64,000 nucleotides of DNA from Nitrosopumilus sp. (GTDB lineage Archaea; Thermoproteota; Nitrososphaeria; Nitrososphaerales; Nitrosopumilaceae). Below, one piece after another: positions 4,520 through 58,717 of the stretch (its first letter is position 1; every line of letters begins with the position of its first letter). Made by a program: the position numbers and the translations under genes. The notes under the pieces are model-generated. The model was not told the origin of the DNA. It searched no databases and was given only the letters and a program-made list of their open reading frames with translations. The stretch covers positions 320,001 through 384,000 of the forward strand of contig OZ245003.1 in assembly GCA_965223425.1 (NCBI GenBank). The letters are read 5' to 3'.

Positions 4520-5799
4520 ATGGAATCTTCAGAACAGACTATACGCAGGCTGCAAAGGGAGCTCAAGCAAAAGGACACAGCAATCAGGCAAAAGGACACA
4601 GCAATCAAGCAGAACAACAGAGCAATCAAGCAGAACAACAGAGCAATCAAGCAGAACAACAGAGCAATCAAGCAGAACAACAGAGCAATCAAGCAAAAGG
4701 ACGCAGCAATCAGCAGGCGCGAGAAGACGATTGGCCTGCTGCGCGAGCAGCAGCTGCTGCGCGAGGACAGCCTGTGGGCCGTTACAGATGCAGGCCGCCC
4801 TGATACGGACACGTCGCTGCTGCACATCAGGGAGGTGATCCACGGCATACTGCACAACAGCGCAAAGCTTGCAGGGATTACCTCGTATGACCTTGACCAG
4901 TTTGACTACATCTGCAATGACTTTGTGGTAGAGTCAAAGAGGCACAACAAAGACGCGCCGCTCTTTTCAGAGGACGGGACACCGGATCCCGGAAACCGCT
5001 GCCTGCCTGGCCGCAGGTCCGTCCTGCTGCTTGCGCTGTTCCGCAAGCGCTCAAACGTGACGCAGGACGCTCTGGGGCGCTGTTTGATGTTGACCAGTCC
5101 ACCGTGTGCAGGTACCTCCGGTTCGCAGATTCCGTGCTGGCAAAGATTCTGCCTACTGCAGACAGGATGACCCGTCTGGTAAAAAAGGCCGAGACATCAG
5201 GGCAGCTAGAGCAGCTAATGCCGGACAGAACCATCATAATTGACGGCACCGAGGTGGTGCCAAGGCAGCGTCCGCAGGACAGGGATAAAAGAAAAAACAC
5301 GTACTCTGGCAAAAAGAAGCGCTTTACGATTAACACCGCCATAACAACAAACAGGGCAGGCCTGATACCTGCAGCAGGCAGGTCCTTTGAGGGCGGGACG
5401 CACGACCTTACCATGATAAGAGAGGATCCGACAGACTTTGGCAGGCGGTCTAAATCCATGTACAAAAAGGACACTCCGGAAAAGGACAGGATACGGTGCT
5501 TGCAGACAAGGGGTACCAGGGATGCCAATCACTACACGGGAATGGCACTTGAGATGCCGGAAAAAAAGAGGCCGCGGACGGAGCTGACGCAGCAGCAAAA
5601 GGACTCGAACAAAAGGATCAGCGCCAAGAGGGTAAAGGCGGGGCACGCCATCGGAAGAATAAAGCAGTGGGCGAGGATGACAGACCCGTATGACGGCACG
5701 GTAGAGGAGTTTCGCGAGGAGCTGGCTGTGTGTACCGGCCTTGCAAACTTTCAACTGCTGTGGGATGCAAAGAAAAAGCGGCCGTCACTTGGTTATTGA
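4520..5799 (+). pseudogene. IS5-B transposase (coiled-coil N-terminus + HTH + DDE_Tnp_4), frameshifted
   Basis: ORFs 4520-5170 and 5104-5799; IIIDGTE and YSGKKKRF motifs; the ADKGYQG motif is out of frame. Confidence 0.85.
4565..4713 (+). repeat. 21-bp tandem repeat encoding heptads IKQNNRA / IKQKDTA
   Basis: CAATCAAGCAGAACAACAGAG x4 plus CAATCA(A/G)GCAAAAGGAC(A/G)CAG variants. Confidence 0.95.
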
Positions 5800-5987
5800 C
5801 GGCACAGCACAGGGTGCATGAGGCACTGCAAGAGTGCGCACGGATTTCTAATTTCTGCGAATTTACACGGCCTTTTGCGTCAAAATTAAATAATTTCCTG
5901 GACTGGCTTTGTGTGTCTTGGTAATGTATGCTGCAGAAAAAATTTGACGGGTCAATTATGCATAAAGTCTCTTATCCTTGGATTAGT

Positions 5988-6589
5988 GTAATCTTATGTG
6001 CCTCGATCAAGGAAATTAGATGATGATGATAAGAACAGTTCTGGTTCAAAAAGATCCACTGTTAAAAGGATCAGAAATGCAAACAAACACACTAGCTGTG
6101 CTGGGCCCACGAGATACGGCAGGTAAAGCACGTAGCGCAAAAATATGATATTGCAGGGGACGTACGGCGGCGGCAACAGTACCACGAGGATCTCAAATGG
6201 GTATTTGCAGAGGCAAAACAGCTTGCTCAGTGTGCTGCGCCATCGTCCCGCCTGTGGTACTCTATGAACTGTGCGCTACATGACATACTGGACAGGTACC
6301 GCAATACCGGAGACGGCTTGCTACAAAAGATCATAGAGAGGATGGAGCGGCATCTTCCGTGCATGTTTGCATTTCTGGAATATTCCGGTGTTGATCCGAC
6401 TAACAACGCATCTGAAAGGGCGCTGCGATATCTGGTGGTGTTCCGGAAGATAAGCGGGCAGACCAAGAGCGGCGTTGTTGCCATGAAGCGTCTTGGAGAT
6501 TTTGTGACATGTGTTCTGACATGGAAGGCTCATGGCAAATGTATTGCACATGAGGTTGCCAGACTGATATAGGGGGTAGGTGAAGTTAC
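5988..6589 (+). mobile_element. Chimeric remnant: IS110-A left end joined to an IS66-family 3' fragment
   Basis: 5988-6091 matches the IS110-A left end; 6264-6572 encodes DPTNNASERALRYLVVFRKISG (IS66 C-terminus); ends in GTTAC. Confidence 0.75.
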
Positions 6590-47928: not shown

Positions 47929-48221
47929 TGTAATATATGGAAAGTCGGTCCGCTAGTCATCGGTGTCCCTCTCCATCCATTTTGGGTTGCTTTTTCTGAT
48001 CGCTTCGGTAGCCGTTTTGTTGTGAAACGCCTCAAGCGGCTTTTCATAGTTGTCAATATCCAGCGCCCAGTGAAGCCGCCTCTCGTTGTAATAGTCGACA
48101 TACTCCTGCACCCCCTTGCGGTGAACCAGCTCCTTCTCAAGCGCCTGGAAGAACCTCTTCAGCTTGCCGTTTGTCTGAGGATGGTACGGCCTGGAGTTTA
48201 TCAGGCCGATGCCCTGCTCTA
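47929..48221 (-). mobile_element. IS481-family transposase C-terminal remnant
   Basis: RPYHPQTNGKLKRF...YNERRLH integrase-core tail; TGT-type end at 47929. Confidence 0.8.
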
Positions 48222-49366
48222 TAGTAAGTACATAAAAAACCTGAACCATTTTGACAATTATTTTTGGCCAAAAGATCCAAGACCGGCCATACCGCACACA
48301 CTGCATGTACAAACAAAAAAAGAGACAGGTTGCAAGGGGGGCAAAATTTCTGCCAAACACCGGCGTTGCAGACCTCAAAAAGGCATACAAAAAAGAGACC
48401 GATCCCAGAAGGCGCGACAGGCTGCTTGCGTACATGCAGCGCAAGGACGGCGTGCCGCTAGACAGGATTGGAAGGATGCTGGGAAGGCCCAGGTCCACCA
48501 TATCTGCATGGCTCAACCGCGCACAGGAAGAGGGAATGCGTGCAAGATTCGAGCGCAGCGGCAGGGGACGAAAGCACCTGCTAAACGGGCCGCAGGCAGG
48601 ACAGCTTGCAGCAGACCTGGATGCGGGGCCAGAATCATGCGGCTTTGAGAGCAGCCTGTGGGACTCCAACCTGGTAAGGCTGCACATCAAGCGAAAGTTC
48701 GGCGTGCAGTACAGCAAAACAGGCGCGCTGCAGCTGATCAGGGAGATGGGCTTTTCGTGGAGCAAGGCGCGTCCAAAAAACCCAAGATCAGCCTCAAAAA
48801 GAAAGCAAAAAGAGTTTCAGGGGCGAGCAAAAAAACTCGTTGCAGAAAAGTCGGCGCAGGGATACACCGTACTGGCCGGCGATGCATCCTCGATTGAAAA
48901 GGCACCAAACAGGCCCGGCTACGGGTGGAGAAGGCGCGGCAAGCGCGCCACATCCCCATCTTTTTTGTCACGCGAAAGAAGATACATCTTTGGAGCTTTG
49001 GCGGCAAGCGCATTTTACTTTATGTTTTATGAAAAGCCAGACAGCGACGGCTTTTGCAGCTTTTTGGAACGGGTTCACAAAAGATTCGGCAAGGTGGTGC
49101 TGCTGTTTGTAGACAATGCGTCATATCACAAATCCAAAAAGGTAAAAGAGTTTCTGGAAAGATACAACGGCGAGATAGTTCTGGAGTACCTGCTGCCGTA
49201 CACGCCGGAGCTTAATCCCATTGAGATGCAGTGGAGGGTGATAAAACGGGTACTGTCTGCAAAGGTGTTTGGCACGCTAGATGAGATGGAGCAGTCAGTA
49301 CGCACGCTGTTTGCCAGAAAGGAGATCCTGCCTGTGAAAATGTTCAATTATTTAATGTGCTAACTA
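48222..49366 (+). mobile_element. IS630-family element A, intact (transposase 48251-49363)
   Basis: Near-identical to 17285-18426. Confidence 0.95.
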
Positions 49367-49676
49367 CACCAAGATCATCTTTTGTTTCCTGAATGGCAAC
49401 AACATCAAATTTTTTGTAACAGCTCGAGTTTCTGAAGTGCCGTGCCTAAATTGGATGTAAAATCTGTGATTTTGATGTGTTTTACGCATGCAACTTCATA
49501 AACTCGATCAGTTACAATTTTTTGCATATTTCGCTAATGTATCGAATAGCCTTGTCTGACTTGTTTTTGTTCAGGTTACGGATGTTCCATGTGAGAAGAT
49601 GAAAGCGGTTAGAATGTAGTGGAGGTATCCTTTCATCTTTAATTCTAGAACGTAAATTCCTTAGCTCACTATTCAT
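49367..49676 (-). pseudogene. Endonuclease/exonuclease/phosphatase (EEP) family gene, 5' remnant
   Basis: After removing the MITE reads MNSELR...FHLLTWNIRNL...ICKKFDVVAIQETKDDLG; cut by IS630-A. Confidence 0.75.
49416..49515. mobile_element. 100-bp MITE with IS66-type ends
   Basis: TIR GTAACAGCTCGAGTTT / GTAACTGATCGAGTTT; 8-bp TSD AATTTTTT. Confidence 0.85.
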
Positions 49677-49827
49677 TAAAGACATTCATGAATCACCAAT
49701 GCATAAATAATAAAAATTTTTTGTTCACGCAAAAATCACGGAACATATGATCGAAATCACCCAATTTGGACAGCACCAAATTTAATATTAATTCATATAG
49801 AATAATTTTAACATAAAAGCGATCAAG

Positions 49828-50283
49828 ATGGAGAATGCAGGAAAACTAGGAGTGATTGTGGTAGTTGGGATCATTCCAGTCTTATTATTTTTGGCAACAG
49901 TTGGAATAGAAATTGAGATCAATTCTAAACTTAGTTGGATCATGGTTTCAATTTCTATTTCAAGTGCGTTAAGCATACCTTTTGTTTATGACCACATTAA
50001 ACAGAATAGAAAGAAGAATAACGCTAAGAAGTTTATTAAAAAACATAGAGACTCAATTGACCATATCAGAAAAAATGATACGGATTTAGAAATGATCTTA
50101 AACCAAATTGTAGAAGACCTTGAAAATATAGAACCATACATAAGAGAAGCTTATAATGAATTTGATTACACAGCATACATTAGAAAAATATCATTCATTA
50201 AAAAATCAAGAAACAAAAACAAACTAGAGGAATATTACAAGTTAATAAAATTAGAAACAGAGGATTTAGTAAGGCATTATTAA
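49828..50283 (+). CDS. Hypothetical protein with two N-terminal TM helices
   Basis: 151-aa AT-rich ORF. Confidence 0.6.
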   Translation: MENAGKLGVIVVVGIIPVLLFLATVGIEIEINSKLSWIMVSISISSALSIPFVYDHIKQNRKKNNAKKFIKKHRDSIDHIRKNDTDLEMILNQIVEDLENIEPYIREAYNEFDYTAYIRKISFIKKSRNKNKLEEYYKLIKLETEDLVRHY

Positions 50284-50496
50284 TTTCCAACAAACTTCAT
50301 GTTCACAAGAAGCAAGTTTAGAAGCGATTTGACCTTTACGAAACAACATAAAATAAGCAGAATCAGGAACATAACAATTCACAGTATCTCCAGAAGTATG
50401 ACCTGCAAATTTGTAAAATCCATCCACCTTAAAGACTTGCCCGCTTTTGATTATTTCTTCTTCTGTATGGTTTTCTATTGGATTTTGCAAACTCAA
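50266..50496 (-). CDS. Small Cys/His-containing hypothetical protein
   Basis: 76 aa; KSGQ...GFY...C...C...WKL pattern reminiscent of YjzC-like proteins. Confidence 0.5.
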   Translation of the reverse strand: MSLQNPIENHTEEEIIKSGQVFKVDGFYKFAGHTSGDTVNCYVPDSAYFMLFRKGQIASKLASCEHEVCWKLIMPY

Positions 50497-50541
50497 CTTA
50501 TCTCACTAATTTAGTAGGGTTATTAACTTTTTATTGTTTCG

Positions 50542-51185
50542 ATGATGTGCCAGCACCTTCCGCATATGTTTACGTTTGTCCAGTACGCCGGGGTGGAGCC
50601 TACTAACAACGCGTCGGAGAGGGCGCTGCGCTATCTGGTGGTGTTCCGGAAGATAAGCGGGCAGGCCAAGGGCGGCAGCAAGGCCATGAAGCGCCTTGGA
50701 GATTTTGTAAGCTGCGTCCTGACGTGGCAGAATCACGGCAAGAGCGTGGCGCAAGAGGTACAGAAAATGGTAGTCAACTGTTTAGAGTTTATGATAAATT
50801 GATGCTGTAACATTTGTAGGGTATCTAAGAGTTACATTGGAAATATGGCAAGATTGCAATCATGCTGGATAGAGCACCAGTTCACAAATCAAAGAAAGTT
50901 AAGGAATATCTTACAAATAATAGAGATGTCAAACTAATCTGGTTGCCAAAGGGATCGTCTTATCTAAACATGATAGAGCAGTGCTGGAAGACAAGCAAGT
51001 ATGCATTGTTAGTATCAGAATATTATACAATGTTTGCAATAATGAACAAAGCAGTCTCTGAATATTATACAATGTTTGCAATAATGAACAAAGCAGTCTC
51101 TGAATATTTTAGAGTGACACAGTTCAAGCTTGATGTTGCAAATTATATTTTTAGAAATCCTGCAAAGATGTTCACGAACTTTTGA
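50542..51185 (+). mobile_element. IS66 C-terminal remnant followed by an IS630 C-terminal remnant
   Basis: EPTNNASERALR (50542-50802); LDRAPVH...LNMIE (50862-51185) with a 42-bp tandem duplication at 51018-51101. Confidence 0.75.
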
Positions 51186-51330: not shown

Positions 51331-51566
51331 TTATTTGACAAGTCCATTGTCATAATCACTAATGAATTCATCCCTATCAATCATAATTTCACCCAACAAT
51401 CCTAAGAGCGTTCCAATTTTGAGCGTATTGTTTCCTGCAGGAACAGTTATGAATATGCTGTCTTTTCTCAGCCTTACATGACTCCCTTTCTGCCTTAATA
51501 TGATAAACCTTTTTTGGTAACATATTTTATCATCGTATTACCTGAGATTCTAGGAATCTTAGTCAT
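51331..51566 (-). pseudogene. hicA: HicA toxin, frameshifted
   Basis: MTKIPRISG..KKG / IILRQKGSHVRL...VP...LKIGTL; 236 nt, one base short of an open frame. Confidence 0.8.
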
Positions 51567-51781
51567 TTGTGATTCTGAACAATCAACATATTAAAATCAG
51601 TTATACCATCATCATCTTCTACTGACACTTCTACTGCTTCTTTCATATTTTCCATAATTTCTCCATATGTCTCGCCTTGTGAATAAGCATGTAGCTCATC
51701 ACATTTGCCTACAAAACCGCCATCAACTTTATCAGGTGTTATGATAATGGTGTATGTCTTTTTCTGTATTGTAGAACTCAT
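51563..51781 (-). CDS. hicB: HicB-like antitoxin (short form)
   Basis: YTIII..DGGFVG.CDEL.AYSQGETYGEIMENMKEAV; ATGA overlap with hicA. Confidence 0.85.
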   Translation of the reverse strand: MSSTIQKKTYTIIITPDKVDGGFVGKCDELHAYSQGETYGEIMENMKEAVEVSVEDDDGITDFNMLIVQNHK

Positions 51782-52075: not shown

Positions 52076-52579
52076 TTGCCAAAAAAATACTGTGTGACAG
52101 AAAAACTGCATGACTCACAGGTGCTTGACTATTTTGAGGTGACCATGAAAGACTTTATCGTGGAACGGCTATCTGACACGGATAACTGGTGGAACGCATG
52201 CATTCCTCCAGAGATAAGAGAAGATGCATCACAGAGACATCAAAGGACAAAGAAGATCAACGATGTCCTAAACAAGCCAGACTATGGAATAGTAGAATAC
52301 ATCAACTTTGATGGATATGAAAAGATAATATCAAGAAAGGATAACTGGAGGAATCACTTTGAGGCAGTCTTTGTCGACAAGACAGTATTTGAGTACAAGA
52401 TGCGAGTTGTACTGTCACTTAGAAACGACATTAGGCATGGGCGACAGCTTGATGAGATAAACAGGATCAGGCTTAGATTGCACTGCTATGACATACTCTC
52501 GCAGATATATGAAACAAGAAAAGCAGACAAAGATGCTCACAACGCTATGATAAAAAAACTCGGCTTCAAGACGGATTGA
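52076..52579 (+). CDS. Stand-alone Swt1-like HEPN domain protein
   Basis: NWW...IP, YINFDGYEKII, NW..F..VF and RNDIRH (RxxxxH). Confidence 0.75.
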   Translation: MPKKYCVTEKLHDSQVLDYFEVTMKDFIVERLSDTDNWWNACIPPEIREDASQRHQRTKKINDVLNKPDYGIVEYINFDGYEKIISRKDNWRNHFEAVFVDKTVFEYKMRVVLSLRNDIRHGRQLDEINRIRLRLHCYDILSQIYETRKADKDAHNAMIKKLGFKTD

Positions 52580-53141: not shown

Positions 53142-54623
53142 TTACAGCGTAATTGAACCGTGTTGATTGACAGTGGTGACATTTGAATGCCATTTTTTAT
53201 GATACTCGTCCTTCTTTGTATGGATCGGGATCAGTGATTTGGCATTGGCATTATCTATCACATACTTGATTTGCTCCCCGTCTCCGTGACCAGAAACATG
53301 GATTTGGTTCCAATCCTCCTCTTTTTTGAGTACGCCAAAGTGAACAAACCAGTTTCTAACCTGCTCGTCTTTTAACTCCATTTCCACATCAAATGGTTCA
53401 GTCAGCGAACGAATGTATGTAGAGCCTTCGATGGGTTTTATGTCAATCAAGTCCTGCAATCTAAAGTCACTGCAAAAAAAGACGTACTGGTTTTGTTTTT
53501 TCTTGATATCCATATAGTTGACCGCGTTTGGATAGCCTAAAAATTCCTGTTGCCAAATCCTATAGTCTGCAAGTAGCTGCTTTTCTGAAAATATGTCAAC
53601 ATTCTTATCAATTAATCCCCAAGAACCCCTCTGAACGTATATTTTGATATTTTTGTCAGTTGGAGATGGATATTTGCCCCTTAAGGATTCTGACTCGTTA
53701 AACAATTTCAGCAGATATGCCTGCTTCATATCTATTACTAGATCTCGGTTACTGTTTTTTGTTGCGATGTAAAATGATAATAGCCTGTCAAGATCCCTGA
53801 CAGGATAACCGCAAATCGCCAAGCCTTTTGTCTTTTTTACAATGTCTGCAACCTTGGATTCGACGTCATACTCTGTATCTGACGGTCTTGCATCAACCCT
53901 AGTTCCCTCACACAGTAATACATCCAAATCTGATTCTGCGCAGCGCCGTACAAAATTTTCTGTATCGTCTTTTCGCCTGCCGTGAAACCGTAAATCGCCC
54001 GTATTGCCAATGGAGCCGTCTGGCGTATGCAAAATAAATGCGTGAACTCCAGGTATTGAATGATCAACAGGTAGTGGTTCTGCCCTGATTGAGTCAATTG
54101 AGAATTCCCTCCCTGATTGAAACGTTTTGATTCTTCTGGGAACCGCAGTTTTGTCTCCACGGGATCTGATTTTTTCTCCCATTTTATTTTCATGAACCTG
54201 AAAATTTTCTTTTAGTGTAAGGTATTGATCAGAGCCTGTATCCTCAAAGTTCTGCATGATTAGTTTTGATTCTTCAGAACAGTAAATTGGAATATCGTCT
54301 CTGAGGTATGGAATGTATGCACAATGGTCAACATGTGCATGTGTAAGCAGCACTGCGTCAATTTCTGTATCCTCGTGTCCGTCAAAACCCATGTGTCTGG
54401 CATAGTCCCGCCTGTAGAGACCCTTGATTTTAGGCAATATTCCAAGTTCAAACATATCAATTAGGCTATTTGATGTTCTAGCCTTCAAAAACTGTGAGAA
54501 AAATTGCCCCTCTTCTGAGAAGGACATTCCAAAATCCATGAAAATTTTTGTTCCTTTGCTTTCAACTAGGAATTTGTTTCCGCCAATATCGTTTACGCCT
54601 CCATGAAATGTGATGCTTGTCAT
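53142..54623 (-). CDS. Metallo-beta-lactamase / beta-CASP nuclease (RNase J-like)
   Basis: GGVNDIGGN, DFG, THAHVDH, DHS, TGD, EGT, HVSGH, PIH motifs all intact. Confidence 0.9.
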   Translation of the reverse strand: MTSITFHGGVNDIGGNKFLVESKGTKIFMDFGMSFSEEGQFFSQFLKARTSNSLIDMFELGILPKIKGLYRRDYARHMGFDGHEDTEIDAVLLTHAHVDHCAYIPYLRDDIPIYCSEESKLIMQNFEDTGSDQYLTLKENFQVHENKMGEKIRSRGDKTAVPRRIKTFQSGREFSIDSIRAEPLPVDHSIPGVHAFILHTPDGSIGNTGDLRFHGRRKDDTENFVRRCAESDLDVLLCEGTRVDARPSDTEYDVESKVADIVKKTKGLAICGYPVRDLDRLLSFYIATKNSNRDLVIDMKQAYLLKLFNESESLRGKYPSPTDKNIKIYVQRGSWGLIDKNVDIFSEKQLLADYRIWQQEFLGYPNAVNYMDIKKKQNQYVFFCSDFRLQDLIDIKPIEGSTYIRSLTEPFDVEMELKDEQVRNWFVHFGVLKKEEDWNQIHVSGHGDGEQIKYVIDNANAKSLIPIHTKKDEYHKKWHSNVTTVNQHGSITL

Positions 54624-54967
54624 ATGTCTACACTTCCAGAATGTCTGTAAAATGTGAATCGGTGGTTTCTGACCCTGTGTCTAATTCTGCTGCACAATTT
54701 CAGTCCTATCTTTATAAAGTTGTCCTCAATGCCAAACTGCTCAAAAACTCTTCTCAAAAAATAACTTCTTGTAAATGAGACTGTTGCATAAACAGACGTA
54801 ATTACCAAGTTTGCAGTCAGAGGATCCTCTTGAATCCAGCCTGTGGATAACGGCAGAATAATAATTCCCAAACCGTATCCTATTGGATATCCGCCAAACG
54901 AATTGACAAACGCTTCTGATAGACTCTTCTTGTGAGAATCCAATTCAACCTCTTTTACTGTGGACAT
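54620..54967 (-). CDS. Small two-TM protein (DUF7220-like)
   Basis: S..KSLSEAFVN..GY...NL.IT..Y..VSF.RSYFLRRVF pattern; ATGA-coupled to the nuclease gene. Confidence 0.65.
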   Translation of the reverse strand: MSTVKEVELDSHKKSLSEAFVNSFGGYPIGYGLGIIILPLSTGWIQEDPLTANLVITSVYATVSFTRSYFLRRVFEQFGIEDNFIKIGLKLCSRIRHRVRNHRFTFYRHSGSVDI

Positions 54968-55065
54968 TCTAATCTCCCCGTCTGACGTGACCTTTTGTTG
55001 TCTGGTTCTTCAAAAATGATGGATGCGCATTTGCGGTATTGCAGCTGAATTTCTGCCAGTTTCAT
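54955..55065 (-). CDS. 36-aa micro-ORF
   Basis: MKLAEIQLQYRKCASIIFEEPDNKRSRQTGRLECPQ; ATGA overlap with the upstream ORF and overlap with the downstream start. Confidence 0.4.
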   Translation of the reverse strand: MKLAEIQLQYRKCASIIFEEPDNKRSRQTGRLECPQ

Positions 55066-55163
55066 CTTCCTCCTCTTCCTCTTCTTCCCTCATAAATCAT
55101 TGGCTCTTCATCTTTATCATCGTCTTCAAACTCTCGAATTATTCTTGGATACATCAAGGTCAT
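55062..55163 (-). CDS. 33-aa micro-ORF with an acidic core
   Basis: MTLMYPRIIREFEDDDKDEEPMIYEGRRGRGGR; starts 2 bp after the PIN stop. Confidence 0.4.
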   Translation of the reverse strand: MTLMYPRIIREFEDDDKDEEPMIYEGRRGRGGR

Positions 55164-55165
55164 TT

Positions 55166-55585
55166 TTAGATACCTCTTACCGTTGATGGGTGAAATGCTG
55201 TAACGCCGACAAACTGACAAGTCTGGAGAAGCATCCTGTCAAAAGTCACTAGGACAAAGCCATTTGCTTTGCATAAACTCAATATTTTATTGTCCCCATT
55301 ATGACAAATCTGGAACTGTTCTGTGATCTGCTTTGCATTTGAAATGTCATTTTGATCAATTTTGGAAAGTTCGATCTTTCTTCCTAACAGGCCTGAAATT
55401 TTGGCAATTATTTTTTCAGGCAAATGTCCCCGTACTCGTTTTACCTCCCCTAGCACAACGTCACAAAGAATGATTCTGACTGATTTTCCCCTCAAGCCGG
55501 CTTTGAGTCTAGATGCTACTCCTGGTTTCTCCATGATGTCAATTACGACGCAAGAATCCAAAGCTACGTTTTGCATCTTGTTCAT
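55166..55585 (-). CDS. PIN-domain ribonuclease
   Basis: ALDSC, VLGEV, GDNKI, LVTFDR: acidic active-site residues present. Confidence 0.85.
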   Translation of the reverse strand: MNKMQNVALDSCVVIDIMEKPGVASRLKAGLRGKSVRIILCDVVLGEVKRVRGHLPEKIIAKISGLLGRKIELSKIDQNDISNAKQITEQFQICHNGDNKILSLCKANGFVLVTFDRMLLQTCQFVGVTAFHPSTVRGI

Positions 55586-55648
55586 GAATTAACCCAGATC
55601 TGGAAAATTATTATATAGTATGTACATAGTATACATATTCCAGATACT
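55586..55648. promoter_or_regulatory. Divergent promoter with nested inverted repeats (putative operator)
   Basis: ATCTGGAA(55598)...TTCCAGAT(55645) flanking TTATATA and the palindrome TATGTACATA (55619-55628). Confidence 0.6.
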
Positions 55649-56395
55649 ATGGTTAAAATTGCGAAATTACGCATACATGTTGCCCCCGTAGGCTATGAAA
55701 TCGACAGGATCGTCCTTCCTGCAAAGCAGGAAAAGGCCGACAAGGTATGGCTGCTGATTCACGAAAATAGGAGCGAAGACAAGGCAGTCCCGTTTATCTC
55801 AAAAATTACAAGACAATTAGAAAAATCAGGAATTGAGACAGTTCAGGAATCTCATAACAGGCGTGATTTATTTCAAATTATTCGTACGGTGAAAAACATT
55901 CTGGAAAAAGAAAAGCAAAATGACGTCTATGTTAATTTGGCATCCGGCTCCAAAATACAAGCAATTGGAACCATGATGGCATGCATGATGTTCAATGATG
56001 ACTCTAACATCCATCCGTTTTATGTGGAGGCAAAAAATTATCCTGGATTTGAAGGAAAAACGCCACTATCTACAGGAATTAAAGAAATCCAAAATGTTCC
56101 ACCCTATTCCATAAAAATACCTGATCAAAAATTAGTTGCGGCGTTAAAAATCATTAAGGAGAATGGTGGAGAAATCACAAAAAAACAAATGGCAGATTTG
56201 GCCGAAAAACATGATCTAATCTCTGTCAATGCAAGAGATGAGGAACACCGCTCCATGGTAAGGTTCACTAGTCTTGACAAGAATATTATTCAGCCGCTAG
56301 AAGAATGGGGATTTGTTAAAATCAAAAAAATTGGAAGAAACAGATGGATAAAAATGACTCAGGAAGGACAAAATGCCTCAGAATTTTTAATTTAA
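55649..56395 (+). CDS. DUF6293/HFX_2341-like CARF-domain + wHTH transcriptional regulator (Csa3-like architecture)
   Basis: RIHVAPVGYEIDR, ADKVWL, VYVNLASGSK CARF motif; C-terminal wHTH PLEEWGFVKIKKIGR...TQEG. Confidence 0.82.
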   Translation: MVKIAKLRIHVAPVGYEIDRIVLPAKQEKADKVWLLIHENRSEDKAVPFISKITRQLEKSGIETVQESHNRRDLFQIIRTVKNILEKEKQNDVYVNLASGSKIQAIGTMMACMMFNDDSNIHPFYVEAKNYPGFEGKTPLSTGIKEIQNVPPYSIKIPDQKLVAALKIIKENGGEITKKQMADLAEKHDLISVNARDEEHRSMVRFTSLDKNIIQPLEEWGFVKIKKIGRNRWIKMTQEGQNASEFLI

Positions 56396-56475: not shown

Positions 56476-56931
56476 TTGAAGGAAGTCATTATGGAAAAAT
56501 ATGTAGATGTTACAGCCGTGATGATGAGAATGCCAATCTGTCTTGAAAAGGAAAAACTTGAGAACTTTTATAGAAAAAATAGATATGATATTATGGGAAA
56601 AATGACTGCAGAAAAATTTGAAGGATATTTCCAGCAATGGTTAGAAGAAATACAAAAACCAGAAATTATGATTAGCTCAGATACTGCTGACTATATTAAT
56701 AATGAACCATACCAAAAAATTATCAAACTTGGAAAAGACTCACTACCTTCCATAATGAATAAAATTGCACAAGGATATTTCTTCTTAAATCATGCAGTTT
56801 CTGAAATTACTGGAAAAAAAATATCTGAAATCATCTCTGGTGGAATGACACCAACTTCACAACAAGAAATTTCAAGATTATGGTTAATGTGGTGGAAAAA
56901 GCAAAAACACACCAGAAGAACCTTCTTTTAA
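56476..56931 (+). CDS. Hypothetical helical protein
   Basis: 151 aa; PYQKIIKLG..SLP.I...AVSEITG...WL.WW tail. Confidence 0.6.
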   Translation: MKEVIMEKYVDVTAVMMRMPICLEKEKLENFYRKNRYDIMGKMTAEKFEGYFQQWLEEIQKPEIMISSDTADYINNEPYQKIIKLGKDSLPSIMNKIAQGYFFLNHAVSEITGKKISEIISGGMTPTSQQEISRLWLMWWKKQKHTRRTFF

Positions 56932-57548: not shown

Positions 57549-58142
57549 ATGAAATTAATTCAGCGAATTTCAAACTCTGCACTTGCAAAGCCTGCCACCC
57601 TTGTATCGTTTGTTTCAATCTTGGCAGTAATTGGCCCCGTTGTGGTGGTTTTGGCAGGGTTTTGGGACGCCATATCCCATCTCCAAAAGGAACCAGAATT
57701 TTTCTGGAGCATACAACACATCATAGTATACTCGGGAGTGTCAATGACTAGCTGCGCTGCCATGGTGGGCTGCATTCTTTTATCTAGAAAATCAGTTCAC
57801 GGTTCCCTTAAAACAGGAATTAAACTCGTTATTGCCGGCTCGATAATTCAAATAATTTCAGGCTTTGGAGACTCTTTATCTCATGAAGTTTTTGGAATTG
57901 ATGGATTGGTATCTTGGTCACATCAGCCCCTCGAGTTTGGGCTTGTTCTTGCGTCCTTGGGAGGAGTCCTGATAGTAAAAAACAGAGAACACACAAACCT
58001 CAAAGCGCTTCTTCCCTTCTCCATTGCGGCATTCTTGTTTTTTGCAACGTGGCTAATCTTTAACTTGGTTCTAGTGTTTGGCCATACCATACAATGCATT
58101 CCTGTCTATGAGATCTTCTCCTCAGGCTGTGCCATACTGTAA
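57549..58142 (+). CDS. Multi-TM hypothetical protein
   Basis: WDAISH...FFW..H and DSLSH..FGIDGL..WSH His-rich membrane motifs. Confidence 0.7.
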   Translation: MKLIQRISNSALAKPATLVSFVSILAVIGPVVVVLAGFWDAISHLQKEPEFFWSIQHIIVYSGVSMTSCAAMVGCILLSRKSVHGSLKTGIKLVIAGSIIQIISGFGDSLSHEVFGIDGLVSWSHQPLEFGLVLASLGGVLIVKNREHTNLKALLPFSIAAFLFFATWLIFNLVLVFGHTIQCIPVYEIFSSGCAIL

Positions 58143-58600
58143 TTTTTTATTCTCAGATATGACATTATCATCACAGTGACGGCCCCCACCAATATCAAGA
58201 CTCCTGCAGGAGTCATCTGTTGAGAATTTGTATTTCCAAACTCTACTTCTAAACTGGTCTGACTTTCTGAAATATTTGTAATTCTTACAGTGTATGTGCC
58301 ATCTTCATCAAAATCAAAATACCCCACTGACATTTTTGTCTGAATCTTCTGTTCTTGTATTACGTTGCCCCTGATATCTAATATCTGAACAAACACCTCC
58401 TCTCCTGAAAATTCTGGCATGTATACCTTGTAAAAGCCGACATCTGCACCTGTGAATTCTGCCTTTAATTCAAAAGAGTTTGAGTGTTTTAGCACTACTG
58501 TTTCATCATGCATTTTCTCAGTTTCAACAAAAACAAAGGAAATCCAAACGGTTCCTATGCTGATTAGCACCAGTCCCAGTTTGAATAGTGAAACTCTCAC
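58106..58600 (-). CDS. Hypothetical protein with N- and C-terminal TM helices and a beta-rich domain
   Basis: 164-aa ORF. Confidence 0.7.
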   Translation of the reverse strand: MRVSLFKLGLVLISIGTVWISFVFVETEKMHDETVVLKHSNSFELKAEFTGADVGFYKVYMPEFSGEEVFVQILDIRGNVIQEQKIQTKMSVGYFDFDEDGTYTVRITNISESQTSLEVEFGNTNSQQMTPAGVLILVGAVTVMIMSYLRIKNYSMAQPEEKIS

Positions 58601-58642: not shown

Positions 58643-58717
58643 AGGGCTCGGAGGGCTTCGATCCCTCGACCTGGCGGTCCGAAGCCGCCTGCACTATCCA
58701 GGCTGTGCAACGAGTCC
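58643..58717 (-). tRNA. tRNA-Arg(TCG)
   Basis: Cloverleaf: D-stem GCAC/GTGC, anticodon arm GGCGG-CTTCGGA-CCGCC, T-arm GAGGG/CCCTC. Confidence 0.9.

Follow-up and report, generated by a model that had tools for sequence, protein, structure and literature searches.

In Sulfolobus, Csa3a, a regulator that joins a CARF domain to a winged helix-turn-helix (wHTH) domain, activates herA, nurA, dpo2 and the ups and ced genes, and the ced genes include two that encode small membrane proteins, according to excerpts of one study (PMC7515695); the Csa3a precedent is reportedly also treated in another (PMC5587795). In Haloferax mediterranei, HFX_2341 is presented, again in excerpts (PMC11434293), as a global regulator that represses cas genes and has homologues in species without CRISPR. 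Here we describe a gene module of Nitrosopumilus sp. in which a CARF-wHTH regulator is encoded divergently from a compact operon. The module occupies positions 53142-56395 of the 64,000-nucleotide stretch that was analysed (contig OZ245003.1, positions 320,001 to 384,000; hereafter the window), and its operon encodes a PIN-domain nuclease, a micropeptide, a 36-amino-acid (aa) open reading frame (ORF), a small DUF7220 protein with two transmembrane (TM) segments and a predicted nuclease of the metallo-beta-lactamase (MBL)/beta-CASP type that resembles RNase J. These genes belong together, and we tentatively read them as a cassette for defence or stress.

The gene for Csa3a adjoins csa1-cas1-cas2-cas4, from which it is divergent. 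Like the regulator of the module, Csa3a and Csa3b combine a CARF domain at the N terminus with a winged helix at the C terminus and are encoded divergently beside nuclease genes; they are among its Foldseek matches (6wxq, 2wte, 6w11), and the control of herA, nurA and small membrane-protein genes, as far as the excerpts describe it, offers a precedent. In contrast, the module regulator scores under the NCBIfam cut-off for Csa3 and its target operon is entirely different; the module has no adjacent cas genes and the genome no Cas10, so that no source of cyclic tetra-adenylate (cA4) is known here. With HFX_2341 the regulator shares the same pair of Pfam domains, HFX_2341_N and DUF6293_C, and both hosts carry type I-B CRISPR-Cas, as the excerpted source has it for Haloferax. 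Whereas HFX_2341 is described there as a global repressor, the conserved arrangement of the module points to a local divergent operon, and the core of its intergenic region is unique in the genome. The ring nucleases Crn1 and Sis0811 likewise combine CARF and wHTH domains (Foldseek matches 7pq2, 7pq6 and 7pqa, with TM-scores normalised to the query (TMq) of 0.44-0.46), but there is no cyclic oligoadenylate pathway here for such an enzyme to reset.

The two nucleases also have described counterparts. The module MBL shares the MBL plus beta-CASP fold and all catalytic motifs with RNase J and with EF2904 (2az4), the best match by both sequence and fold and itself an uncharacterised protein. Unlike the 550-residue bacterial RNase J chains, which fit the MBL model worse (TM-scores normalised to the target (TMt) of 0.53-0.59), the shorter archaeal mpy-RNase J chains (447-463 residues) fit it better (TMt 0.74-0.75). 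The PIN protein shares its domain and four conserved acidic residues with VapC toxins; in contrast to VapBC pairs, however, no antitoxin gene stands directly upstream of it, since PIN is the first gene after the promoter and the next gene upstream is the divergent regulator. Our literature search (DUF7220, DUF6293, HFX_2341, and Nitrosopumilus with CARF) found no published description of the module, the 2020 classification of CARF proteins and its supplements, which may list this neighbourhood, lying outside that search; nothing was returned for DUF7220, and only the Haloferax work for DUF6293 and HFX_2341.

Organization of the module

The operon lies on the minus strand and comprises, in order of transcription, the genes for the PIN-domain protein (55166-55585, 139 aa), the micropeptide (55062-55163, 33 aa from an ATG start), the 36-aa ORF (54955-55065), the DUF7220 protein (54620-54967, 115 aa) and the MBL (53142-54623, 493 aa). 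On the plus strand, across a 63-bp intergenic region (55586-55648), follows the regulator gene (55649-56395, 248 aa). When the minus strand was read directly, a 2-bp gap separated the PIN stop from the micropeptide ATG at 55163, the micropeptide and 36-aa frames overlapped by ATGA, the 36-aa and DUF7220 frames by 13 bp, and the DUF7220 and MBL frames again by ATGA. All six ORFs, their overlaps and the intergenic region are thus as a preliminary description of this DNA had given them, the ORF list and the direct reading being in agreement, and Pfam upheld each of its domain assignments (MBL, DUF7220, PIN and DUF6293 CARF-wHTH). Each module protein is encoded once in the 2.64-Mb genome.

Conservation of the gene set

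A neighbourhood survey anchored on either the CARF or the MBL gene found the module genes together at many other loci, as had been anticipated; these come from Nitrosopumilus, Nitrosarchaeum and other Nitrosopumilaceae. For the CARF-anchored set, at least 237 metagenome relatives were identified and 80 loci kept; profiles built from genome loci were searched against the stop-to-stop ORFs of these loci, and each component was counted only where the locus extended far enough upstream (at least 700 bp, 2.5 kb or 5 kb). With at least 2.5 kb, DUF7220 was found in 26 of 28 loci and a Zn-ribbon protein, which the window lacks, in 25, together with a small coiled-coil protein, 'F10' (15/28), and a second two-TM protein (12/28). 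The micropeptide motif was present in 42 of the 51 loci with at least 700 bp, and among the 18 with at least 5 kb the MBL occurred somewhere in 14 and collinear on the operon strand in eight, as did a Cas4-like nuclease in eight. Gene order was collinear across the loci, the usual order outward from the divergent CARF gene being PIN, micropeptide, F10, Zn ribbon, TM protein, DUF7220, Cas4-like nuclease and MBL, with PIN, F10, the TM protein and the Cas4-like nuclease each optional.

The conserved core consists of the CARF-wHTH regulator, the micropeptide, the Zn ribbon, DUF7220 and the RNase J-like MBL. The preliminary description had portrayed a two-nuclease module; as an account of the core this fails, since PIN is optional (17/51 loci with at least 700 bp upstream) and the micropeptide, Zn ribbon, DUF7220 and MBL are all more constant. 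The window copy is a reduced version that has PIN and lacks both the Zn-ribbon gene and the second TM gene. Because dozens of independent contigs carry the same gene set, the association is far beyond chance.

Anchoring on the MBL gave 23 genome loci, with CARF within a few kb in 10, DUF7220 in 10 and PIN in four. Full sets were found in two genomes of the same genus, G014 (CARF 79%, PIN 75%, DUF7220 60% and MBL 81% identical) and G009 (72%, 63%, 66% and 75%, respectively), as well as in locus L066, from Ca. Nitrosopumilus salarius BD31, and decayed or rearranged versions in two further genomes, G007 and G021. Broken copies were seen in G007, where the MBL gene is split by an in-frame TAG, and in loci L070 and L056. 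Some relatives carry inserts within the module, among them genes for a DUF5615 (PIN-like) protein and a RusA protein; their Cas4-like gene matches PDDEXK_1 (1.7e-6), and in locus L054 a gene matching the PADLOC Mrr-type family PDC-S02 stands between regulator and MBL. Separately, in three loci (L050:9486-9767, L053:9485-9763 and L066:9482-9766) the next gene after the MBL, in the same orientation, encodes a Cys-rich protein of 92-94 aa; this protein has no Pfam family and is absent from the window.

The module appears to be accessory and specific to Nitrosopumilaceae. The MBL was present in 8 of 24 genomes of the same genus, in 19 of 41 genomes drawn from relatives and in 16 of 29 high-quality genomes, and the HFX_2341_N domain in 39 of 73 family genomes (a tally that includes the unpublished genome G289). 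None of the genes that flank the module in the window was found at any other locus examined. This patchy distribution and the unshared flanks together exclude a universal housekeeping RNase at a core locus, the alternative that the preliminary description had named; in the same sense, the MBL reached 60-64 bits against RNase J cut-offs of 400-820.

The intergenic region

The sequence upstream of the regulator was compared across 51 distinct versions from 57 loci, 50 of which could be placed in register. In these 50, about 46 nt adjoining the CARF start reach 90% identity or more in most columns, and about 20 nt adjoining the operon start codon are variable. The conserved core contains an A/T-rich ATTATTATATA box, by our count some 22-32 nt from the operon ATG, that may be the TATA box of the operon, whose transcript would then have little or no leader. 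Also within the core, the motif ATAGYATG is directly repeated at a spacing of 11 bp, and a perfect palindrome of 10 bp, GTATGCATAC, separates a further A/T-rich patch from the start of CARF; in the window this palindrome is degenerate, GTATACATAT. To judge by these features, the region probably comprises back-to-back promoters and an operator.

The region had been called palindrome-rich, and it indeed holds four inverted repeats in the window; the longest, with 11-nt arms, is specific to the window, however, and relatives keep the different core described above, so this repeat was dropped as a candidate operator. No second copy of the 26-nt core of the window occurs in the genome at up to five mismatches, which fits a dedicated local regulator, and the one 13-mer match found elsewhere is within chance by a rough estimate. 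In many relatives an in-frame ATG precedes the CARF start by 21 nt, and an extension beginning MHT could be read from it. We rejected this extension as coding sequence: because the window has ATA at that position, and the conserved core of the region includes the stretch, what is conserved here is probably the DNA and not a protein sequence.

The regulator and its possible signal

The regulator matched the Pfam families HFX_2341_N (PF19810; 126.9 bits, 7.3e-37, cut-off 30), DUF6293_C (79.1 bits, 3.8e-22) and Csa3_N (34.1 bits, cut-off 27), and was the sole module protein with a PADLOC match (CARF3 model PDLC01847, 2e-78); by PF19810 and PDLC01847 it belongs to the CARF superfamily. It scored below both the NCBIfam Csa3 cut-off (TIGR01884; 30 versus 60.2 bits) and the HFX_2341 equivalog cut-off (NF051475; 16.7 versus 500 bits). 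A CARF domain is recognized by its Rossmann-like fold and by conserved loops that follow strands beta-1 and beta-4. The AlphaFold2 (AF2) model of the regulator, of moderate confidence (predicted local distance difference test, pLDDT, 74.9), matched Can2, Cam1, Card1, Csa3, Csm6 and the CARF-wHTH ring nuclease Sis0811 in Foldseek, and the corresponding loops, H10-R20 and N96-K102, are both invariant among 11 orthologues; fold and loops thus agree with the profile assignment, within the limits of a model at that pLDDT. The segment NLASGSK aligned to LDLTSGTK of Thermus Csm6, although weakly (E 0.9). Control by a ligand, as the preliminary description had inferred, would fit the invariant loops, but no Cas10 or CD-NTase was found in the genome. 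Complex prediction for the regulator and the micropeptide gave no answer (score 0.00 against a mark of 0.32) and speaks neither for nor against binding.

The search for a signal source covered this 99.99%-complete genome, in which the Cas10 profile TIGR02578 gave just a 22-bit match to an HD region, TIGR02577 gave none, and the CD-NTase/SMODS profile PF18144 gave none. Type III CRISPR or cyclic oligoadenylate signalling, which calls for a Cas10 or CD-NTase synthase in the same genome, is accordingly not represented. Among 121 family genomes, SMODS exceeded its cut-off in 15, marginally in each case (26.6-31.7 bits; the tally includes G289).

A complete type I-B CRISPR-Cas locus lies about 1 Mb from the module, at 1357298-1371000 of the main contig (G000:C1; fetched as L172 and L173). 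It consists of cas4-cas2-cas1, divergent from a 557-aa ORF in the large-subunit position, followed by cas7-cas5-cas3 and an ORF with a weak Cas6 match, and its array has at least 74 repeats. A second Cas1 fragment was noted at C1:1379849-1380046. Type I-B Cas7 occurs in just 3 of the 73 family genomes, only one of which has the CARF domain, against 39 of 73 for the CARF domain itself, and the module is therefore independent of CRISPR at the level of the lineage.

In loci L152-L155 (genus g30), an orthologous CARF-wHTH gene lies in a conserved core neighbourhood without a divergent operon; by eye, its neighbours are hemerythrin-like and metallophosphoesterase-like genes upstream and a TFB-like gene downstream. 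This arrangement suggests either that the operon-free state is the older one or that the regulator has a second role.

The MBL/beta-CASP nuclease

The last protein of the operon is predicted, from its motifs and its model, to be a nuclease, and is an RNase J-like enzyme of an uncharacterised subfamily. It matched Lactamase_B_2 (1.1e-9) and RMMBL (8.1e-5) in Pfam, and its catalytic residues, which belong to what are conventionally named MBL motifs 1-4 and beta-CASP motifs A-C (D30, H95xH97xD99H100, D187H188, D210, E239, H442, H446 and H468), are invariant in 25 sequences down to 28% identity; motifs and fold both place it among the beta-CASP MBL nucleases. The best solved relative by sequence was 2az4 (2.8e-25), which also came first in a Foldseek search with the AF2 model (pLDDT 87.2, predicted TM-score 0.89) at TMt 0.82, followed by bacterial and archaeal RNase J and then by CPSF-type enzymes; no SNM1/Artemis-type entry was among the top 50. 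The protein nevertheless fell below the RNase J cut-offs of TIGR00649 (59.8 versus 400 bits) and NF047419 (64.3 versus 820 bits). Database searches returned 2212 relatives at E<=1e-5, the best 120 of which are 69-100% identical to it. A second MBL subtype, 35% identical, takes its place at the end of the operon in locus L101.

Other beta-CASP genes exist in the genome, with open frames of 659 and 422 aa. In addition, RNase J-like beta-CASP open frames were seen on a second contig, G000:C2, at 4816-5034 and 5870-6430, the latter within a 543-aa frame; this contig has 123,097 bases at a GC content of 0.47, compared with 0.41 for C1, and could be a plasmid or a foreign contig.

The small operon proteins

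The micropeptide motif, PRIIREF followed by an acidic run and PMxYG, was borne by 59 distinct peptides. These measure 35-57 aa where they adjoin the regulator, as the long forms do in loci without PIN, and 21-33 aa where PIN precedes them, in which case their start follows closely on the PIN stop. Among 30 aligned sequences, P6, I8, R10, E11, F12, D14 and P21 are invariant and all indels are whole codons; across 44 distinct nucleotide versions, the mean entropy of an 8-codon core was 0.24 bits at the first codon position, 0.13 at the second and 0.96 at the third. This concentration of entropy at the third position marks the micropeptide clearly as a real coding gene. The ORF list also offered a 52-aa form with a TTG start (55062-55220), which we rejected as relatives start right after the PIN stop, a position that supports the 33-aa ATG form. 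A role as dedicated PIN antitoxin was likewise rejected, since the motif is so much more widespread than PIN and occurs without it. In locus L087 (393-677, minus strand), micropeptide and Zn ribbon share a single 94-aa reading frame, the two being separate genes in the close relative L088; the fusion may be natural or may stem from an error of assembly.

The 36-aa ORF was the top match of the F10 profile among ORF fragments of the window, although a weak one (E 0.011, 9 bits, profile positions 21-39). F10 proteins are coiled-coil proteins of 55-70 aa encoded at the same position and on the same strand in relatives, and the ORF is probably, if tentatively, a truncated F10 remnant.

The PIN protein reached 29.7 bits (1.1e-6) against a Pfam cut-off of 23.6 and is assigned to the PIN nucleases, with D10, E47, D98 and D115 invariant in six sequences; with NCBIfam TIGR00305 it scored 16.6 bits, below the cut-off of 29.15. 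Orthologues 61-75% identical to it were found in L033, L034, L050, L058 and L070. The DUF7220 protein matched its Pfam family at 61.5 bits (1e-16) and the phage family phrog_4276 at 1.1e-11. It has 2809 homologues, none of them functionally named among the best 120 of 2809, and its nearest ESM Atlas clusters include some labelled Uroviricota; in searches of the Atlas with the Zn-ribbon and DUF7220 proteins, solely unnamed or same-family clusters were returned.

Proposed function and alternatives

The reading we favour, held a little short of even confidence, is that the module serves in defence or stress as an inducible cassette for processing nucleic acid, under local regulation; this reading extends to DNA binding, ligand control, the direction of regulation, the nuclease substrates and the biological role, all of which we infer. 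The dedicated CARF-wHTH regulator would bind the conserved core of the 63-bp region, which would bear the regulator promoter and the operon promoter back to back, so that, as we propose, the regulator would both autoregulate and gate the divergent operon. A small-molecule signal in the CARF pocket, other than a Cas10-made cyclic oligoadenylate, would switch the operon on. The operon would then supply the micropeptide and small membrane proteins (DUF7220 here, the second two-TM and Zn-ribbon proteins elsewhere) along with its nucleases (the RNase J-like beta-CASP enzyme, here also PIN and elsewhere the Cas4-like enzyme), and these nucleases may degrade or process nucleic acid during mobile-element invasion or a similar stress.

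The company that the MBL keeps in relatives is in part defensive. Downstream of it there are often genes for PbeA (3e-215) and PbeC (5e-72), for a GmrSD/Schlafen-domain protein (Pfam GmrSD_N 4e-36; best PADLOC match PDC-M55C 6e-32) and for an HNH-HIT protein, and the PDC-S02 Mrr protein (1e-130), which in L054 lies inside the module, is a further example. At least one defence-type gene was present in 10 of 24 MBL-anchored loci of at least 10 kb, a biased count because the queries were drawn from those same loci. The window itself contributes a HEPN gene that resembles PDC-M34B. Several findings weigh against a defence cassette. Such neighbours are much rarer in CARF-anchored loci (2/12 and 1/20), and PADLOC-DB v2, in line with the preliminary reading as no recognised named system, matches none of the five operon proteins (MBL, DUF7220, PIN and both micro-ORFs), nor has it a family for the Zn-ribbon, TM75 or DUF5615 proteins of relatives. 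No signal synthase was found in the genome, and among 121 family genomes none had a Cas10 above the cut-off. In some genera the CARF gene stays in a core context and lacks the operon (L152-L155 above), and the frequent adjacency of the module to nurA-herA-mre11-rad50 would suit DNA repair no less than defence.

That adjacency, which the preliminary description had not noted, opens a different reading, in which the module is a DNA-damage-response or end-processing system: a Csa3a-like regulator would switch on nucleases and small membrane proteins, and these would assist the NurA-HerA-Mre11-Rad50 machinery encoded nearby in repairing or exchanging DNA. We think this unlikely, though it deserves serious weight. 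NurA, HerA, Mre11 or Rad50 genes stand beside the CARF gene in nine fetched loci, and in the 14 genomes with CARF and Rad50 on one contig the two are less than 7 kb apart in eight and 32-42 kb apart in three more (coordinates compared by hand). In L167, from another family of the order, CARF is divergent from two Zn-ribbon genes followed by nurA-herA-mre11-rad50, and in L038 the gene after rad50, in the same orientation, encodes an MBL paralogue of 35% identity. Other lineages of the order show different partners, to judge by eye from N-terminal motifs: in L171 the genes that diverge from CARF encode PIN, a Zn ribbon and a UvrD-like helicase that carries a PD-(D/E)XK piece, in L156 and L157 CARF is paired with UvrD-like helicase/nuclease genes, and in L166 it is divergent from a 488-aa Cas4-like gene. 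Genes for Cas4-like and RusA proteins are found repeatedly within or beside the module, and the Csa3a studies supply the precedent cited at the outset. Against all this, the MBL fold is nearest to RNase J ribonucleases rather than to SNM1/Artemis-type enzymes, PIN domains are usually RNases, and the Rad50 query used gave no match in the genome of the window, where the module is nevertheless intact. The nurA-herA-mre11-rad50 cluster, too, has a patchy distribution, with Rad50 found in 22 of 73 family genomes (loci include L038, L056, L162 and L167), so that adjacency may reflect no more than a shared place in one variable region.

A further view is that the module is a remnant or cargo of a mobile element, such as an addiction module with the regulator as its repressor. 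The genomic contexts vary, decayed copies exist, and the window copy lies in low-GC DNA between IS630-like transposase genes and a tRNA-Arg gene; DUF7220 has the phage-family and Uroviricota links noted above, and small Zn-ribbon and TM proteins resemble the gene content of archaeal viruses. We nevertheless consider this view distinctly improbable, as none of the gene families shared by at least three of 30 clustered loci encodes an integrase, a replication protein or a capsid protein, and the protein sequences are under strong purifying selection across genera. Viral contigs gave no relatives in single-protein scans with CARF and MBL or in alignment scans with CARF and DUF7220, and a phage collection yielded nothing for DUF7220 and, for the MBL, only three matches of 27% identity, two from Enterococcus phages. 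It is more improbable still that the regulator acts chiefly in trans, as a global regulator like HFX_2341 (so described in the excerpted source), with its adjacency to the operon secondary. The shared domain pair, the type I-B locus in the genome and the genera that keep the CARF gene alone speak for such a role; the scarcity of Cas7 relative to CARF, the single genomic copy of the operator-like core, the tightly conserved divergent arrangement and spacing, and the score far below the HFX_2341 equivalog cut-off all speak against it. Least credible is housekeeping RNA turnover, with the MBL as the RNase J of the lineage and its neighbours incidental: the fold and motifs would suit it, and one source labels relatives 'ribonuclease J', but the patchy distribution, the pseudogenised copies, the low RNase J scores and the other beta-CASP genes of the genome largely rule it out.

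A bolder reading, which we regard as a long shot, is a CRISPR-independent CARF pathway in ammonia-oxidising archaea. Here the CARF-wHTH protein would sense a nucleotide not made by Cas10 (e.g., a nuclease-generated or virus-derived oligonucleotide), with the micropeptide as co-factor, and would switch on a membrane-plus-nuclease apparatus working with NurA-HerA-Mre11-Rad50. If true, the module would be either (i) a thaumarchaeal counterpart of the Csa3a-controlled Ced/Ups response, or (ii) a new abortive-infection system based on an RNase J-like enzyme.

The Nitrosopumilaceae rank among the ocean's most abundant archaea, and we know of few defence or stress systems described in them; the module is both frequent in the family (the 39 of 73 genomes and at least 237 metagenome relatives given above) and tightly conserved. 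A CARF sensor in a lineage without Cas10 above its cut-off raises the question of what else CARF domains sense. The module offers a conserved micropeptide and a short, nearly invariant region, the predicted operator and promoter, that is ready for binding assays, and it may link CARF-wHTH regulators to DNA-end-processing genes outside Sulfolobales.

Surroundings of the module in the window

The module is housed in low-GC DNA at about 47.9-58.6 kb (GC content 0.35-0.41), and its placement in an island was borne out, this island holding insertion-sequence elements, a HEPN gene and a tRNA gene. At the transposase-side edge (47953-51185), a domain scan placed an IS630-like DDE_3 transposase gene at 48251-49363 and an rve_3 fragment, and two shorter ORFs at 50542-51185 look, by eye, like transposase fragments. 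The HEPN-like protein (167 aa; 52076-52579, plus strand) had only a weak Pfam match (HEPN_Swt1, 0.0023) and a better one in PADLOC (candidate-defence family PDC-M34B, 3e-15). A 72-aa ORF at 51563-51781, earlier called HicB, had no Pfam match at E<=0.01, no family matched the ORFs at 56476-56931, 57549-58142 and 58106-58600, and Rfam gave no match over 50-59 kb. The opposite edge of the island is marked by tRNA-Arg(TCG) (58643-58717, minus strand). An aminotransferase ORF with a GTG start at 58705 overlaps this tRNA gene, and its start was probably called too far upstream.

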